IMG/VR virus record: IMGVR_UViG_3300037785_000022
Location: 1-35,942 of that record
Origin: a virus
Taxonomy: Duplodnaviria > Caudoviricetes
DNA: 35,942 nucleotides
Strand: one strand, 5' to 3'
The notes below the pieces were generated by a model, which saw only the letters and a program-made list of their open reading frames with translations, ran no database searches and had not been told where the DNA came from. The number at the start of each line of letters is the position of its first letter. The stretch's first letter is position 1. Both the position numbers and the translations under genes were made by a program. Shown here in pieces: positions 14,641-32,840 of the stretch.

Positions 14641-14945
14641 TAGACAGCCCCTTCACGCGTCCGAAACACTCGGTTGTCAGCGTCGTTAAGCCACTTCTTC
14701 ATCGCCTTGGGGTCGTCTGCAATGCCCCGGCGCTTGAGGTCATAATACACCGAAAGCGGGATCGACGCCACACGGGCCATGTCGCCCCACTTGGTCCGCT
14801 TGTCCGTCGCGTTGCGGGCGCGGACGTTGCTCTCGTCCACCTGAACGCGCTGCTCGGTCTCAATGACGAATTCGCCGTTTGGCAGCATGTGCCAATAGCG
14901 CGTAATGCCGGTCAGCGGGTCGGTGTCAAAGATGCGTTTGGTCAT
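14640..14945 (-). CDS. Conserved post-capsid hypothetical protein
   Basis: VASIP..KKWLNDADNRVFRT motif. Confidence 0.75.
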   Translation of the reverse strand: MTKRIFDTDPLTGITRYWHMLPNGEFVIETEQRVQVDESNVRARNATDKRTKWGDMARVASIPLSVYYDLKRRGIADDPKAMKKWLNDADNRVFRTREGAV

Positions 14946-15478
14946 TCAACGTGGCTCCATGTCCTGCCAGTTCTAACACCCCTGACGCAGTTCGTGCTAA
15001 CGCCTAGCTCTCTGCCCAATGCGGCGTTGCCAAGAGGGCTTGACCGAATATACCTTACTTGGGCTTCCGTTAAAAGAGACTTGCCGTTTTGCGTGCCGAG
15101 AGGTGCGACCGTTCGCTTCCTGCCCTTAGCAATCATGTCGTCTGTATTGTCTTTGTGCGTGCCCACAGACAAGTGATCTGGGTTTACACATGCTCGGTTG
15201 TCGCAAGAGTGCATGACAACAAAACCTTTTGGTATTGGGCCATGATGCATTTCATAAGACAATCTGTGAACAGATCTTGTGCCTTCTGATTTTTTGCCAA
15301 CGCTAATCAAGCCATACCCAGACGGGCTTTTGCCGCCCACCCAGAGCCAGCATCCGTCAGTCTTTTCAACGCGCGTCCAAAATCTGTCTTCTATAGGCCC
15401 TCGAGCGCGCATCCACGGGTTCTTTACTTTTTCCGCACGAAGTTTTGCGTGTCTCTGCTCGTTTTGCTCTCTTTTCAT
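14942..15478 (-). CDS. HNH homing endonuclease
   Basis: RFWTRV..CWLW..GYG..HRLSY..VMHSCDNRACVNPDHL..GTHKDN plus a C-terminal HTH; lower GC than neighbours. Confidence 0.92.
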   Translation of the reverse strand: MKREQNEQRHAKLRAEKVKNPWMRARGPIEDRFWTRVEKTDGCWLWVGGKSPSGYGLISVGKKSEGTRSVHRLSYEMHHGPIPKGFVVMHSCDNRACVNPDHLSVGTHKDNTDDMIAKGRKRTVAPLGTQNGKSLLTEAQVRYIRSSPLGNAALGRELGVSTNCVRGVRTGRTWSHVE

Positions 15479-22717: not shown

Positions 22718-24054
22718 ACGACCCCCTTAATGTTTCGGCGCAGCGGCTTTCCCCAATCGGATCGACCGCCATAAGCCAGCGACGTGAAGTCCACGGCCAA
22801 GGTCAGGCACACCGCGTCAGCGCGGTCTGGCGACTTCACGCCGCGCTTTTTCATGCTTTCCTTGCTCTCGACCTGCACCTTGCCGTTGCTGGTGTAGGTG
22901 TAGCGCGGGCCGCTGAGTTCGAGGAATAGCTGGTCGTCCTTGGGAAGCCGCACATCCCGCCCCGCCAGCCAGTCGCGGGTCTTGAACCACAGTTCGCTGC
23001 GAAGGTTCAGGTAGGTCTCGGCAACAGAAGGCCGCTCAGAGACGTTCAGGCCGCGCACAGGCAGGCCAATCTCCCGCAGGCGGTCCACTACCCCCGCGCC
23101 AATGCCGATGCTGTCCACGATGATCTCAACGGGCTGGTGACGCGGCAGGGTCGCTTCCCATTCCAGCTTTACCGCGCCCGCAAGCTGCATCAGGTCCAGC
23201 TTGTTCCAGACCTTGAGCGGGTGAACCACAGAACCTTGGCGCTTGGCAAGCACGCTGCTGTCGTCGCCGTGACGCGCCACGTCCAGCCCCCAGACGACAG
23301 GCGCGGTGTCCGAGGTCTCGATTTCGTTCTTCATCGCGTGGTCAATCAGGTCCACGCCGATAACCGCGTCGTCCTCTGCCGCCTCAAAGCTGCAATAATA
23401 TTCCTGAGCAACTTTACTATCAGACATGCCATCGTCCCGCTCTTGCTGAATTTGGGCCGGTGAAACGATGCCCGTGTCCTCAACAGTCAGGCGCTCGCAA
23501 AACCATTCGTCGCTGTCTGTCGCGCGTTGAAACGTCTTGTATCCGTGATTGCGACCGCGCGGCGTGTAGATAAACAGTGCCCAGCCGCCGTTCTCCAATA
23601 GGATCGGGCGGATGTAGTCCCAAGCCTCTGGATGCGCGATAGACCACTCCGAAAACACCACGCCAATCGGGTTTGAACCCACGAGGCTGTCATAGTTGTC
23701 CGAGCCTGCCATTTGCCAGATGGAGCCGTTGACGGTCTCGATCAGCATCTCCTGACCGTTTTCGCGCTTGCGCACGGCTGGCGGCAGGAACTGGTCAATG
23801 ATGCGACGGCCCTCGCGGTCAATGCCGTTCCACACTGCGCGGCGGGCCTGTAGCTGCTCGGGGAAGAGGTGCCAGTAGGTGCCGACACGCTTGAACATGT
23901 CGCGGGCCGTGAGGTTCAGCGCGCAGCTATCCTTGCCAGCCCGGCGATGCCAGACAGCGCAGCCGCGTTGGAACTGCTTGCCGTGGCCGAAGCTGTTGTA
24001 GAGGTTCCGCTGGTGCGCCCGAGGCGTCCAGTCATTCGGGATCGTGATAGCCAT
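22714..24054 (-). CDS. terL: Terminase large subunit
   Basis: Walker A-like WHRRAGKD, VVFSEW Walker B variant, FIYTPRGRNH coupling motif, nuclease GLDVARHGDD..SPDRADA. Confidence 0.95.
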   Translation of the reverse strand: MAITIPNDWTPRAHQRNLYNSFGHGKQFQRGCAVWHRRAGKDSCALNLTARDMFKRVGTYWHLFPEQLQARRAVWNGIDREGRRIIDQFLPPAVRKRENGQEMLIETVNGSIWQMAGSDNYDSLVGSNPIGVVFSEWSIAHPEAWDYIRPILLENGGWALFIYTPRGRNHGYKTFQRATDSDEWFCERLTVEDTGIVSPAQIQQERDDGMSDSKVAQEYYCSFEAAEDDAVIGVDLIDHAMKNEIETSDTAPVVWGLDVARHGDDSSVLAKRQGSVVHPLKVWNKLDLMQLAGAVKLEWEATLPRHQPVEIIVDSIGIGAGVVDRLREIGLPVRGLNVSERPSVAETYLNLRSELWFKTRDWLAGRDVRLPKDDQLFLELSGPRYTYTSNGKVQVESKESMKKRGVKSPDRADAVCLTLAVDFTSLAYGGRSDWGKPLRRNIKGVV

Positions 24055-24451
24055 CAATCACGCTAATGCTGACGCCGCCTTGATGCTCGACGGTTTGCTT
24101 GTCGCCGTAGGATGCGCGGTTCCACTTGCCGATCAGCCGCAAGCGCGTGTCAATCCTGATGCGTCGGTCTGCCGGATCAAGTTGGTCGTTATCCGCAATG
24201 GTCAGGCATTCCTCCGCAAGCGTGTGCGTGCCTTCTTCCCGTGCGCGGGGAATTGCCTCATCAAGGTCGGGATATTTCTTGCGCCATCTAAGCACGGTTG
24301 CATGGCTTGGCATGTCGTCGTTGCGGCAGATGGACAGCAAAGAACGGCCTTGTGAAAGGCGCTCTAGGATAGCGTCGTGAATTTCTTGCGTGTATCCGTC
24401 TTCTGGCACTTTGGCCTTTGCGGGTTTGCGCTTGTTACTTCCGCTTGCCAC
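24032..24451 (-). CDS. terS: Terminase small subunit, Sf6 gp1-like
   Basis: YTQEIHDAILERLSQGRSLLSIC..MPSHATVLRW..IDTRLRLIGKW..YGDK; start uncertain (GTG at 24451 or 24409). Confidence 0.88.
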   Translation of the reverse strand: MASGSNKRKPAKAKVPEDGYTQEIHDAILERLSQGRSLLSICRNDDMPSHATVLRWRKKYPDLDEAIPRAREEGTHTLAEECLTIADNDQLDPADRRIRIDTRLRLIGKWNRASYGDKQTVEHQGGVSISVIDGYHDPE

Positions 24452-24453
24452 CT

Positions 24454-24756
24454 TTACGGCCTTTCGATTTGCAGGGCATGTAATCTCTCCGCGATGCTTG
24501 TATGTTTCTCGATGAAGATATCCGGCGCAGGCAACTCTGCCCATGCAGCGATAAGACCCATGTCGTAGATGCCATTCCAGTCCGGAACGTATACAACAAC
24601 CTTTCGATACAGTCCGTCGCCGACCGGCTCAAAGTTTACCTTGCGGGAACCTGTGTTCACGCCGATTTCGTATTCCTTGAATATATTGAGAGCAAGGACG
24701 AGCTTCATGTCGTCCGGGATGGGTCCAGTGTTCCACTTGAGTTCATCGCAGGGCAT
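24454..24756 (-). CDS. Hypothetical protein
   Basis: GGAGG RBS before MPCDELKWNTG. Confidence 0.65.
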   Translation of the reverse strand: MPCDELKWNTGPIPDDMKLVLALNIFKEYEIGVNTGSRKVNFEPVGDGLYRKVVVYVPDWNGIYDMGLIAAWAELPAPDIFIEKHTSIAERLHALQIERP

Positions 24757-24818
24757 GGATGCCTCCGTGTGCCTTGTTGCGTGTGGTGGGAATATAATCG
24801 ATTGCGGCCCCACGGTCT

Positions 24819-24922
24819 AGGTGCGCAGGCGTCAGGCAAGGAAGGTCGCCTGTGGGCCTGACCCTGCGCTGCGGTGTTTAGGGGCGAAATGTTGACTGCG
24901 ACCTCCCCGCGAACATCCGCTA
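24819..24922 (-). ncRNA. Candidate structured RNA, copy E1 (two hairpins with complementary loops)
   Basis: Aligns to 25912..26017 with compensatory changes; strand is tentative. Confidence 0.6.
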
Positions 24923-25093
24923 CGCGCCGGACTTGACCAGCCGGTCACGCTCTGCCTCTGCCGCATCAAGCGATGCGCAAAGGTCTTTGATAAGCGTTTC
25001 AATGTCTTTTCTCGGGTCGTTTCGCTTTCCCAAAGATGTTCTCACATATCGGGCCATTTGCGTTGACCCGTCACTGTATGATTTATTGATCAC
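24920..25093 (-). CDS. 57 aa hypothetical protein (not in ORF track)
   Basis: GTG INKSYSDG..DAAEAERDRLVKSGA; coupled to the upstream stop. Confidence 0.55.
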   Translation of the reverse strand: MINKSYSDGSTQMARYVRTSLGKRNDPRKDIETLIKDLCASLDAAEAERDRLVKSGA

Positions 25094-25257
25094 TGTCGTT
25101 GCCCTTGCCTTTGCAGCCGGATCAGGTCGGCCTCCTGCTCGATCACGTCATGCACCAGTCGGGCCGGGTGGCCCTTGGCTATCTCGATCCTGATCCACTG
25201 TTGCAGGCTCATGCGGACGGCCTGTGCGCTGGCGTCGGGGGTCGTGTCGTGGGTCAT
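25090..25257 (-). CDS. MTHDTT-family small protein, paralogue 2
   Basis: Clear full-length similarity to 26588..26788. Confidence 0.7.
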   Translation of the reverse strand: MTHDTTPDASAQAVRMSLQQWIRIEIAKGHPARLVHDVIEQEADLIRLQRQGQRQ

Positions 25258-25511
25258 TGGTTTACCGGGTCTTTTGGCAGTGGCATCCAGTGTGTTGGCT
25301 GATCGTTTTCTGTATAGTGTGATTTGCTGTTCCACCGTGTCCAGATCGGATTCCGGTGATTTTCCCACCACCAAATATCAATTTTCGTCAACTCATAATC
25401 CGACTTCATCCAGCCCAAAATATAAGTGCCGTCCTTTGGGGCTGTTTCTATCGGCATCCAACCGTTTGCGTCAGGTGTGTGGTCGTGGGTCATCTGAACG
25501 CGCTGGGGCAT
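25254..25511 (-). CDS. DUF551-like protein
   Basis: WMPIETAPKDGT.IL..PTHWMPLP motif. Confidence 0.8.
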   Translation of the reverse strand: MPQRVQMTHDHTPDANGWMPIETAPKDGTYILGWMKSDYELTKIDIWWWENHRNPIWTRWNSKSHYTENDQPTHWMPLPKDPVNQ

Positions 25512-25639
25512 CAGTCGTTCCTCCATCCGAAAAGCCACGCCCCAACGGTGAGGATGCCCATCACCGTGATCAGGAACGCGCCGACGGCCAGCCCCGCGAT
25601 GATCGCCCAGCCGACGATCTCGAAAATCTGGTTCGCCAT
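25511..25639 (-). CDS. 42 aa membrane peptide (not in ORF track)
   Basis: MANQIFEIVGWAIIAGLAVGAFLITVMGILTVGAWLFGWRND; GGAGG RBS; coupled to the next gene. Confidence 0.6.
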   Translation of the reverse strand: MANQIFEIVGWAIIAGLAVGAFLITVMGILTVGAWLFGWRND

Positions 25640-25659
25640 CACCCGTCCCTCCCCGGCAT

Positions 25660-25877
25660 CTGGTCTGGTTTTGCATCAATTCACGGAGAATGTCAGAAAA
25701 CTCCGGCTTTGTTTCATCCCGTGCCCATGCGTATAGCGTTTCGCGTGTAAGCCCTAGAACGCAAGCAAGACCCGCAACCGATGGGATGGGGTCGTCGAAA
25801 GCCTCGTGATCTGCAATGTAGTTTCTCGCCTTTTGCAGTATCTCGGGCTTGTAGTCTGTGGGTTTACCTCCAGCCAT
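25660..25877 (-). pseudogene. Truncated second terminase small subunit (P22 gp3-like DNA-packaging protein)
   Basis: MAGGKPTDYKPEIL..IPSVAGLACVLGLTRETLYAWA..EFSDIL; resemblance ends at ~aa 72, after which the frame runs out of frame through another gene. Confidence 0.75.
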
Positions 25878-25911
25878 ATGCGTTATTCTATCACGTTTCT
25901 TGCATTGAACA

Positions 25912-26017
25912 AGGTGCGCAGCCTTGCCGACAGGAAGAGGTCGCCTTGAGATCAGCTATCTGCGCGTGGCGTTTCGGGCAGAACTGTTTGTTGCGACCGA
26001 CCCGGCAACGTCCACTA
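25912..26017 (-). ncRNA. Candidate structured RNA, copy E2
   Basis: Homologous to 24819..24922; a U-G pair in GCUGA/UCGGC favours the minus strand. Confidence 0.6.
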
Positions 26018-26057
26018 GCCGCTGGCGTTTACCGGCCAGTCACGGTGACTCTGTAGA

Positions 26058-26264: not shown

Positions 26265-26587
26265 TTTGACCTCGTTTGCGGCCACACCGGATAGGGCTTG
26301 CGTCACGTCCCCGATATGGCCTTCCGCCTTGCGTAGCGGTTTGCAGGGCGTCCCCTGACGCGGCGTGACGGGCCTATCTCACCCCCTGACCTCAAAGCCG
26401 GGCGAGGATGGTTGCCCACTGTCGCCCGGTTCTGTTGCGTGCTTGCTTAAACCTGCGAGCGCCGCGAATATAATGCCAGCGCACGTTTTGACTGTGGCGC
26501 AGTTCGGTAGCGCGCGACCAACTCTGCGGAAAACCGTGACACTTTTTTTCGAGTGTTGATGTTGCGGTGTGCGCTGGCAGGATCAAT

Positions 26588-26788
26588 TTACTTGGCCTTC
26601 CCTTGGCCGTCAACGGCTTGTTCCCACTCCTGCCCCTCGCGTTGGAGCCGGATCATCGTGGCCTCCTGCTCGATGATGCTGTTGACCAGACCGGCGGGGT
26701 GGCCCTGGGCGATCTGGGCGCGCATCCAGAGGCGCAGGCTTTCGCGGATGGCTAGGGCGCTGGCGTCGAGCGTGGTGTCGTGGGTCAT
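26588..26788 (-). CDS. MTHDTT-family small protein, paralogue 1
   Basis: GGAGG RBS; similar to 25090..25257. Confidence 0.7.
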   Translation of the reverse strand: MTHDTTLDASALAIRESLRLWMRAQIAQGHPAGLVNSIIEQEATMIRLQREGQEWEQAVDGQGKAK

Positions 26789-27414
26789 GCCAGCCTCCAC
26801 ATCTTCGCTTTGCCGCTTCCGCATTTGACCTCGCCGATCTCCTTGACCTTGCCATTGAGGGCGAGGCGTTGAAGCGACTTGCGGGCGGCTTCAGAGGTGA
26901 TGCCGGAGGCTGCTGCAATGTCGCGGCTGGTGCCGGGCTGCTTGGAGAGAAAGCCCAGAACGATGTCGCGGGTTTGCTCCATCTTGCGCGTGTTGACGTG
27001 GTTTTTGTTGCGCGGAACGTGCTTTGCGCCCGGAACCGCCTGCCACATCTTTTTGCCAAACGCGCCGTCGCCGCCGAAGTCTACCGCGCGGCCCTCGTCC
27101 TTGAGCCGGTTTAGCCTGACCCTGACCTGCGCCTTGGTGATGCCGGTTTTCTCTGCCAGTTCGGCAACGCTGATCTTGTCGGCCATGTGCTTGAGAATGC
27201 GGTCGTCGGCTTTGCGCCTTTGGTCATCTGAGTTTATCAAAACCTGCTTGTGGCGGGCCTCTGCCGCTCGGGCGTTGTATTCCTCGCGCTTGCCCATCTC
27301 TGGCAGGGACGGCTTGTGGCCCTCTTTCTCGGCGAGACGCGCCCAGCGCAAGGCCAAGAGGTTCTCGGCGCGGGACGGGATGATTGCCTTGTCGTGAATG
27401 GTGATAGCGTTCAT
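26785..27414 (-). CDS. Protein with two winged-helix domains (candidate late regulator)
   Basis: ISVAELAEKTGITKAQVRVRLNRLKDEG and TSRDIAAASGITSEAARKSLQRLALNG. Confidence 0.75.
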   Translation of the reverse strand: MNAITIHDKAIIPSRAENLLALRWARLAEKEGHKPSLPEMGKREEYNARAAEARHKQVLINSDDQRRKADDRILKHMADKISVAELAEKTGITKAQVRVRLNRLKDEGRAVDFGGDGAFGKKMWQAVPGAKHVPRNKNHVNTRKMEQTRDIVLGFLSKQPGTSRDIAAASGITSEAARKSLQRLALNGKVKEIGEVKCGSGKAKMWRLA

Positions 27415-31529: not shown

Positions 31530-32185
31530 GCCATCGTCCCCTTAAATGCAGCGTCAAACGTGTCATCGCCCTTCACGGCGGCGTCATGTGCGGCGTCGGT
31601 CTCGATCTCGGCCTTCCGCGCATCCTTGGCTTGGATCACGGCAGGCACGGCCTTCACGTCGCCCGGCAGGTCCATCCAGATTGCCTTGAGCGCGTCCAGC
31701 GTCTCGGCGTTGCCCAGCGCCCCGGTGGCGGCGTCTACGGCTTCCTTGGCCGGGTTTTGCGGCTTGGGCGCGGGCTTCTGGCGAGCGGGCGGCGGTGCGG
31801 CGGCTGCGGCGTTTCCATCGTCGTCGGTATCCGGTGCGATACCCGTTAAGCTTTCAAGCCCAATGCGCTTTGCATACGTGGTCGCAGACTTCATGCCTTG
31901 CATGTTGTTTTTGTCTACAATCAAAGGCACATCGCAATGAATGTGAGTGTCGGTTGCGCCGTGAGACAACGTAGTTCTCATCATCATTCCATCGCTGTCG
32001 CGGATCATGCTGTGATACATCGCAATGCCTTGATCCGACAAAGCAGGCACAACAACGGAAACAACATCAGCCAAGTCAGCGTAGCGGCTGCGGTATGCGG
32101 GATTTACTGATCCTTTAGTAACGCGCCCCATGTTCATCTGTGCGGCACAAAGTGCCATGTAGATATTTTTGTGTTCAGCCGTCAT
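31526..32185 (-). CDS. erf: ERF-family ssDNA annealing protein
   Basis: NPAYRSRYADL..QGMKSATTYAKR..L..GIA..DDDGN. Confidence 0.92.
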   Translation of the reverse strand: MTAEHKNIYMALCAAQMNMGRVTKGSVNPAYRSRYADLADVVSVVVPALSDQGIAMYHSMIRDSDGMMMRTTLSHGATDTHIHCDVPLIVDKNNMQGMKSATTYAKRIGLESLTGIAPDTDDDGNAAAAAPPPARQKPAPKPQNPAKEAVDAATGALGNAETLDALKAIWMDLPGDVKAVPAVIQAKDARKAEIETDAAHDAAVKGDDTFDAAFKGTMA

Positions 32186-32840
32186 TGTCTTGATCCTTTT
32201 TTACGAAGTGAAAGCCGCCGGTGTGGCTATACTTGCCAGCAAGAACTTTTCGTATGTTCTCACGATAAACCCCCAATTGCAGCGCAGCCTGAGTTATTGA
32301 TGGGAAAGTTTCTCCCGTTGTTGTGCAAAATACTTTACACGACGAGTAATCAACGCCTCTTGTTTTAACGCCTATTAAGTTCAGGTGATTGATCACTGTT
32401 TGCGTGCTTACGTTAAACATTTTGCCGATCTGTTGAGCGGTGTTGTCTTTGTAAAGCTGGGTAAGCACGTCATCATCGCAAAACGACTTGAACGATTTGC
32501 TATTTTTGCCAGAAGGTCTTTTTTTTCCTTTTAACGACGCTGATATTTTGTCGCCCCACCACCTGTGCGGGACGTTTACCCCTTTACCACCGAGAGCAAC
32601 ATTTGCATGGCAAAGCCCCATGCGCTTAAAGTTTGCAATGGCGTCAGACTCAAAAAACATGGCCTCATCTGCTGTGTCGTGATTTGAAATCACAAAAGCG
32701 GAAAAGCCATCCTTGGCAAACCTACGCCACAGCTTAGACCTGTTTCCGGTTACATGCAGACGCTTGCCAGAGCCTTTCCCGACATAGAAAACGCCATGTG
32801 TTTCGTTTTCATGGGCATAGACGTAATGCATCATTTGCAT
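32175..32840 (-). CDS. GIY-YIG homing endonuclease with NUMOD-type DNA-binding modules
   Basis: YVYAH..FYVGKG..R..E..N.GG.G; KISASLKGK; TGETFPSITQAA..HTGGFHF; low GC. Confidence 0.85.
   Translation of the reverse strand: MQMMHYVYAHENETHGVFYVGKGSGKRLHVTGNRSKLWRRFAKDGFSAFVISNHDTADEAMFFESDAIANFKRMGLCHANVALGGKGVNVPHRWWGDKISASLKGKKRPSGKNSKSFKSFCDDDVLTQLYKDNTAQQIGKMFNVSTQTVINHLNLIGVKTRGVDYSSCKVFCTTTGETFPSITQAALQLGVYRENIRKVLAGKYSHTGGFHFVKKDQDNDG

Follow-up and report, generated by a model that had tools for sequence, protein, structure and literature searches.

Pseudoknotted RNAs at operon ends of uncultured phages: an apparently undescribed family with a putative function

Why should a tailed phage carry two copies of a folded RNA close to its packaging genes, and what might such an RNA do? 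The locus raising this question lies in IMG/VR record IMGVR_UViG_3300037785_000022 (Duplodnaviria; Caudoviricetes), whose 35,942 bases, the whole stretch of DNA analyzed, are referred to as the window; the record represents a tailed phage with the genes for portal, capsid, terL, and terS all on the minus strand. A previous inspection of the letters without database searches (the sequence-only reading) had described here a twice-present, covarying two-hairpin RNA with complementary loops and had proposed, among other roles, a packaging RNA. Both copies, E1 and E2, are present on the minus strand where they had been placed (Table 1) and are identical at 95 of 137 aligned positions. The two described hairpins, hereafter P1 and P2, fold on this strand with z-scores of -3.3 (E1) and -1.85 (E2), the values for plus-strand folding of the same regions being -3.0 and -0.57, respectively, and the pattern of loop B and hairpin 2 occurs twice in the window versus in 0 of 100 shuffles. 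While these hairpins are real, a third one, P0, located upstream of P1, had been overlooked; each copy thus comprises three hairpins and reaches approximately 27 nucleotides (nt) further in the 5' direction. As detailed below, E1 and E2 belong to a real family of phage RNAs that contain a pseudoknot and lie at the ends of operons; the family is apparently undescribed, its structure is well supported, and its function is putative.

When viral and metagenome contigs were scanned with sequence patterns and loci encoding terL relatives were searched with a profile, 15 further distinct long members came to light. A pattern for P0 only matched 34 loci, all of which (34/34) scored with R1, which like R2 is a model of the element; 30 of them were shorter variants with scores of 29 to 57 bits. 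A looser scan of viral contigs added 26 new loci, made up of 6 members (3 distinct) and 20 non-members. In total, 41 distinct members with a length of 107 to 135 nt were obtained, which form 25 clusters at 90% identity and 11 clusters (lineages) at 80%. The carriers are many unrelated uncultured phages with one copy each; the element is present in just two of 80 terL-relative loci, L149 and L152. Other searches were negative: a loose hairpin 2 pattern gave 120 loci without a single member according to pattern and profile checks, a strict pattern for the long subtype gave two matches in genome contigs, both due to chance, and the P0 pattern gave four matches of 12 to 22 bits, versus three in the control, in 401 genomes from the class of an alphaproteobacterial metagenome-assembled genome, where the element was not found. 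BLASTN of E1 and of the 5' part of L291 against 50,697 phage records returned chance matches only, and tblastn of the upstream winged-helix protein had no match in phage records; hence, no cultured carrier is known. The family had been regarded as unrecognized, and Rfam 15 agrees, with no hit in the window at the gathering threshold, none at the element at E ≤ 10, and none at E ≤ 5 in the loci of 20 homologues. The literature searched, PMC9378689, PMC12315714, PMC10690425, and PMC5737381 among it, offered no account of such an RNA. The passages and four supplementary files covered of PMC10690425, a study of structured RNAs from IMG/VR, contain no match to the element, which might nevertheless be one of the unnamed candidates of that study.

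The fold is supported by covariation, as had been claimed from the two copies and as was found on two alignments. In a MAFFT alignment of 17 homologues (A6; E1, E2, and 15 others), pairing holds in 98.7% of the 622 cells, and both sides have changed in 13 of the 37 pairs; none of 500 shuffles was as good, and slid controls paired in 36 to 47%. A tree-aware G-test assigned E < 0.05 to 6 of the 37 pairs, while no pair outside the structure fell below E = 0.49. For a model-fitted alignment of 38 sequences, which is biased towards the structure, the corresponding values are 95.2% of cells, 25 of 31 pairs changed on both sides, and 15 of 31 pairs with tree-aware significance. There are 38 G-U cells but only 4 A-C cells, an excess indicating that the RNA is read from the strand of the phage genes. 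A structured, non-coding sense-strand RNA is supported. P0 is nearly invariant across the members and contains invariant unpaired bases; note that its conservation is partly built in because P0 served as a search pattern. In all 41 members, the three bases following P0 pair with three supposedly unpaired bases of P1 (3 bp in 36 members, 2 bp in 5), and this central pseudoknot is swapped compensatorily between E1 (GCG/CGC) and E2 (GGC/GCC), the informative double swap being a single event in the E1 lineage (four sequences). Judged by sequence comparison, P0 and the H-type central pseudoknot are the conserved core of the family. The unpaired words that had been described as conserved fared less well, AACA and the 3' ACCU being kept among close relatives only.

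A compact fold with one or two pseudoknots and invariant unpaired bases in P0 would also suit a new self-cleaving ribozyme cutting the read-through transcript at the operon boundary, as would the position between transcription units and the lack of a common phage protein (see below). We consider such a ribozyme unlikely: Rfam ribozyme models gave no match, even at E ≤ 10 at the element or at E ≤ 5 in the homologue loci, inspection by eye disclosed no core of the hammerhead, twister, pistol, or hepatitis delta virus type, and the sequence of the P0 stem is itself kept, which fits better with a binding site.

The complementarity between the loops of hairpins 1 and 2 covaries as well, with UGUCGC/GCGACA in L242 and GGCCGC/GCGGCC in L260 (one event each, p ~0.008, E ~0.3) and a seventh pair that flips from A-U to U-A in L272. 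A kissing loop of 6 to 7 bp is present in the 17 long members, for L271 as taken from the 17-homologue alignment, and with a different sequence in L294, i.e., in 18 of 38 aligned members, and is missing in the other 20. Among the 21 short members (L294 included), the complementarity of the loops of one RNA averages 3.2 nt, compared with 3.0 nt for mismatched pairs. The proposed loop-loop interaction is therefore a real pairing in this subtype but missing from most short members, and the predicted kissing loop is an accessory feature.

This result bears on the suggestion that the RNA multimerizes by loop-loop pairing in the manner of phi29 pRNA. In phi29 pRNA, the complementary loops are obligatory, and the RNA is tied to one type of packaging motor. 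The element resembles it in having two complementary loops in one subtype and in being usually located near packaging genes, but its loop pairing is optional, its carriers possess two-subunit terminases of several types, and some members are far from packaging genes. Linkage to terS is a tendency, from which L369, L264, and L301 depart; the comparison with phi29 pRNA is not supported, given the 20 of 38 members without a kissing loop, the different packaging modules (GP3-type terS, Sf6-type terS, or HNH), and these three distant members, of which the L369 element lies among replication genes. A site acting at the DNA level (cos, pac, or an origin of single-stranded DNA) could likewise explain the frequent vicinity to terS, and GGCGACCT agrees with the lambda cohesive end, as given in PMC12315714, at 8 of 12 bases. 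This likeness was discarded, as the cos-like word mutates together with its pairing partner, and the excess of G-U over A-C cells favors an RNA single strand. A packaging RNA or a DNA-level packaging site is accordingly a highly improbable explanation.

The presence of two copies can be attributed to the history of the window. All 34 other carrier records have a single element match each, including the four that are at least 90% complete. In run X1, which is possibly the source sample and hence not independent, contigs arriving at a short segment between the copies (junction in Table 1) from both sides continue into other sequence, and no bridging contig was found among the 8 of 23 pieces listed. 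The junction breaks the first (GP3-type) terS, and a small upstream gene is also present twice (25100-25257 and 26631-26788, 74% identity). These features indicate that the early half of one phage is joined to the late half of a relative, either as a recombinant or as an assembly chimera, and that the window has two copies because of this junction. The twofold occurrence noted by the sequence-only reading is real in that both copies exist, but the two are not a functional pair, since the other records have one copy and a junction intervenes. Two further observations were made in run X1. One contig, whose shorter arm comprises 30 letters, links position 24920 to position 25423 and might represent a variant with P1 and P2 and without P0, or perhaps another genome or an artefact. 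The summed contig depth is ~140 over E2 (25926-26032) versus 6 to 14 on its flanks, which implies that many related phages share the element there.

Table 1. Positions of the RNA elements and of neighboring features in the window
Feature	Position	Strand	Remarks
E1, whole RNA element (P0, central pseudoknot, P1, P2)	24818..24949	-	R1 136 bits, R2 94 bits
E1 hairpin P0	24926..24949	-	Bulged A, 5-bp stem, 8-nt loop; conservation in the family highest here
E1 central pseudoknot, 5' strand	24923..24925	-	GCG
E1 central pseudoknot, 3' strand	24909..24911	-	CGC, inside internal loop of P1; counted from P1 start
E1 hairpin P1	24871..24920	-	Hairpin 1 of the sequence-only reading
E1 kissing strand A	24898..24903	-	GGUCGC
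E1 hairpin P2	24823..24869	-	Hairpin 2 of the sequence-only reading; kissing strand B 24844-24849; pyrimidine run 24838-24843
E2, whole RNA element	25911..26044	-	R1 136 bits, R2 99 bits
E2 hairpin P0	26021..26044	-	
E2 central pseudoknot, 5' strand	26018..26020	-	GGC; partner GCC at 26004-26006
E2 hairpin P1	25966..26015	-	Kissing strand A 25993-25998
E2 hairpin P2	25916..25965	-	Kissing strand B 25939-25944
Sigma70-like promoter match directly after E1	24791..24819	-	TAGACC-17-TATATT; scanner match, consensus match only
Weak promoter-like match after E2	25885..25912	-	TTGTTC-16-TAGAAT; script score 7.5, below scanner threshold; 7 nt ahead of terS ATG
Junction between two related phages, either a recombinant or a chimeric assembly	25665..25680	.	
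ORF with intact terS (Sf6-type)	24032..24544	-	Downstream of E1; PF20901, E = 4e-30; phrog_1482
Truncated GP3-type terS	25665..25877	-	91% identity to L019 terS over 79 aligned residues; divergence past ~residue 70
Winged-helix gene	26785..27414	-	Homologues stop at UGA of P0 in several long-subtype members
Module X	26474..26580	-	Separate structured non-coding element
Sigma70-like promoter match before module X	26585..26613	-	TTGACG-17-TAAATT; scanner

The position of the element relative to genes is more uniform than the genes themselves. An open reading frame (ORF) of at least 50 codons stops between -16 and +27 of the element start in 30 of the 34 members with 300 nt upstream (the seven with a locus end too near being left out of the count), versus 12% at random places. 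The genes concerned vary and encode winged-helix-like, HNH-AP2 endonuclease, RtcB, HD-domain, and PD-(D/E)XK nuclease proteins. In L019 (1429-1956), the HNH-AP2 endonuclease gene is located just ahead of the element, and a 10-nt duplication spares P0 and provides the stop codon of the gene. Stop-codon read-through was rejected as an explanation, as no conserved frame was seen by eye: 10 members have the stop at +2, 7 have it at +13, and others have it elsewhere. The alphaproteobacterial two-piece transfer-messenger RNA (tmRNA; RF01849), with its H5 and pseudoknot, likewise has a stop codon in or at a hairpin; a copy of this part was discarded too, as none of 12 tmRNA loci gave a significant R2 hit and inspection by eye showed no resemblance. 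The genes following the element code for GP3-type terS, Sf6-type terS, HNH, or ParB-methylase proteins and elsewhere comprise an SNF2-like gene (L264), genes ahead of a capsid protein (L301), an antiterminator-like gene (L317), and, beyond a terminator, replication genes (L369). The L317 gene (785-1393, minus strand) starts 17 nt past the element and matches phrog_6386, annotated as transcription antiterminator (E = 5e-6; no Pfam hit). In L301 (1235-1500), a degenerate transfer RNA (tRNA; 33 bits) and more tRNA-like remnants are found between a terminator and the element, and structural genes follow.

Promoter-like matches with a score of at least 8 follow the element in 19 of 41 members, compared with 4% at random places and 1 of 37 upstream of the element. 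Candidate promoters had been reported to abut both copies in the window; the site after E1 was picked up by the scanner, whereas that after E2 is weak. In L296, L298, L300, L307, and L339, operator-like inverted repeats overlap the downstream promoter-like sites just past the element. Where the promoter lies downstream, a role as a late leader is doubtful because a transcript starting there would not contain the RNA. In 11 of 38 members, by hand count, a gene with a ribosome-binding site starts 9 to 33 nt past P2 without a good promoter match, so that read-through must occur there. A terminator-like signal is found directly after the element in L369 and four others, and a U-run comes after P2 in 4 of 41 members. 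Such U-runs, and the location between stop codon and promoter in about half of the members, could reflect a non-canonical terminator or an insulator that shields the downstream promoter from upstream transcription. Yet most members are devoid of a U-tract, the next gene in the 11 members mentioned is promoter-less, and a simple terminator would need neither an invariant P0 nor a pseudoknot; we therefore regard this function as quite unlikely.

Start at the stop codon and frequent downstream promoters are equally compatible with a decay barrier or a small RNA derived from the 3' untranslated region: the pseudoknot would stop host ribonucleases, thereby protecting the upstream message or freeing a stable RNA, and the P2 loop, which contains a run of at least four pyrimidines in 37 of 38 members, would pair in trans with ribosome-binding sites. 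In L369, the terminator would supply a natural 3' end. A pyrimidine-rich hairpin loop and a probable alphaproteobacterial host are shared with the AbcR and cuckoo-type anti-Shine-Dalgarno small RNAs of Alphaproteobacteria; the element differs in having one such loop of variable sequence, mostly no terminator of its own, and no Rfam match. The loop of one lineage holds CUCCCA, a word found seven times in the AbcR paper PMC5461406. Against this explanation, 36 of 41 members have no terminator-like 3' end at or right after P2, Rfam yielded no small RNA match, and pairing of the P2 loop with downstream ribosome-binding sites is no better than that of its own shuffles (-5.79 vs -5.79 kcal/mol). A decay barrier or small RNA is thus possible, if on the unlikely side. 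The same loop might act in cis on read-through transcripts by masking the next ribosome-binding site; its pyrimidine-rich nature and 5 to 6 bases complementary to that site in L227, L272, and L293 could be cited in favor. This cis pairing was rejected by a permutation test, in which the actual pairings did not surpass permuted ones (p = 0.76; superior in 18 of 38), and the loop remains unchanged when the downstream gene changes; a translational switch is accordingly very improbable.

As to a protein partner, six-frame ORFs compared by BLASTP had relatives in at most four of the nine larger carrier records (70 to 100% complete), with remote homologues and incomplete records to be allowed for, and none of the 63 ORFs of the window matched N-, Q-, or NusG-like proteins. 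With no common phage protein and yet a nearly invariant P0, the partner should be host-encoded or there is none; any partner of the RNA is probably host-encoded. The window contains a GapR-domain gene (PF10073, E = 1e-31), which suggests that the phage infects an alphaproteobacterium.

The explanation that we tentatively favor, at well below an even chance, is that the element is a put-like read-through RNA acting on the host transcription complex. It would be transcribed as the tail of the upstream message and, as the first untranslated stretch at the operon end, would fold when the last ribosome terminates. The invariant P0 would then bind a host factor, conceivably the host RNA polymerase, and suppressed pausing or termination would control read-through into the next transcription unit, as does the put RNA of HK022. 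The putL and putR sequences of HK022 are RNA-only antiterminators (PMC9378689). The put RNAs share with the element the cis placement after a stop codon (putR of HK022 and phiEt88 starts ~15 to 20 nt past the stop of the upstream gene, which is in cro position) and the apparent lack of a phage protein partner. Specifically, P0 matches putR stem I in geometry (5 bp, 8-nt loop) and has a similar loop, and a bulged second stem occurs in both; the commonest P0 shows 14 of 26 identities to putR stem I, a value reached by 58 of 6,225 background hairpins of the same geometry, the elements themselves included. The U-rich pause after putL has a counterpart in the terminator-like signal of L369 and the four other members, and the 11 members with a promoter-less next gene call for read-through to express it.

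Several points weigh against this proposal. A GCC/AA motif similar to the stem II core of put (GGCG/CAAU with non-canonical pairs) is present, but its GCC, which resembles the G43-C44 core, is paired in the central pseudoknot here. Whereas put consists of two stem-loops joined by a single G, ~70 nt in all, the element has three hairpins, a central pseudoknot, and 107 to 135 nt, and its linker between P0 and P1 measures 5 to 9 nt in 34 matching members, mostly 5 to 7, versus 1 to 3 nt in put. It lacks the invariant put words and is placed at an operon end, often before a promoter; in the 19 members with such a promoter, a polymerase starting there is not modifiable by an upstream RNA. One member (L317) encodes a protein antiterminator right past the element. 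Furthermore, R3, a covariance model of put only (10 put sequences), gave no match at the element in any of 37 member loci; putL and putR, in turn, are missed by both R1 and R2. The best non-put match of R3, in L364/L384 (14 bits, E = 0.18), is on the opposite strand in a stretch read as coding and was taken as chance. A shared descriptor covers 8 of 8 puts and 34 of 41 members, E1 not among them, with 40 hits in 789 kb, but it was written post hoc with both families known, and in its original form it failed to detect 7 of the 8 puts. The put RNAs suppress terminators through the beta' zinc-binding domain. By the profile test, the element is not a put.

Further features were noted around the element. 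Upstream of 6 of the 41 members (L006, L012, L016, L019, L231, and L262) is a separate structured non-coding element, module X, whose 11-bp closing helix covaries and whose inner hairpin is invariant (z of -1.7 to -3.4 in six folded copies). It lies directly behind a promoter-like site and gave no Rfam hit at gathering level, and part of its opposite strand looks like a tRNA D-arm. No tRNA or tmRNA genes were found in the window, in which free-standing HNH and homing-endonuclease genes occur past the capsid gene and within the early region (14942-15478 and 32175-32840).

Taken together, we give a little less than an even chance to the broader proposition that the family is either a second, structurally independent class of RNA-only antiterminators or a new class of self-cleaving ribozymes, i.e., a hairpin plus a 3-bp pseudoknot serving as a portable operon-boundary device of otherwise unrelated alphaproteobacterial phages. 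Few phages are known to have RNA-only antiterminators, chiefly those of the HK022 put group (PMC9378689). Small and well aligned, the family is inexpensive to study in vitro, and its core is now defined as P0 with the central pseudoknot. If the RNA cleaves itself, it would represent a new ribozyme class. If the read-through proposal is true, alphaproteobacterial phages would have a differently folded antiterminator RNA, which would illustrate how small phages lacking N and Q may time their gene expression and would provide a compact part for expression control.
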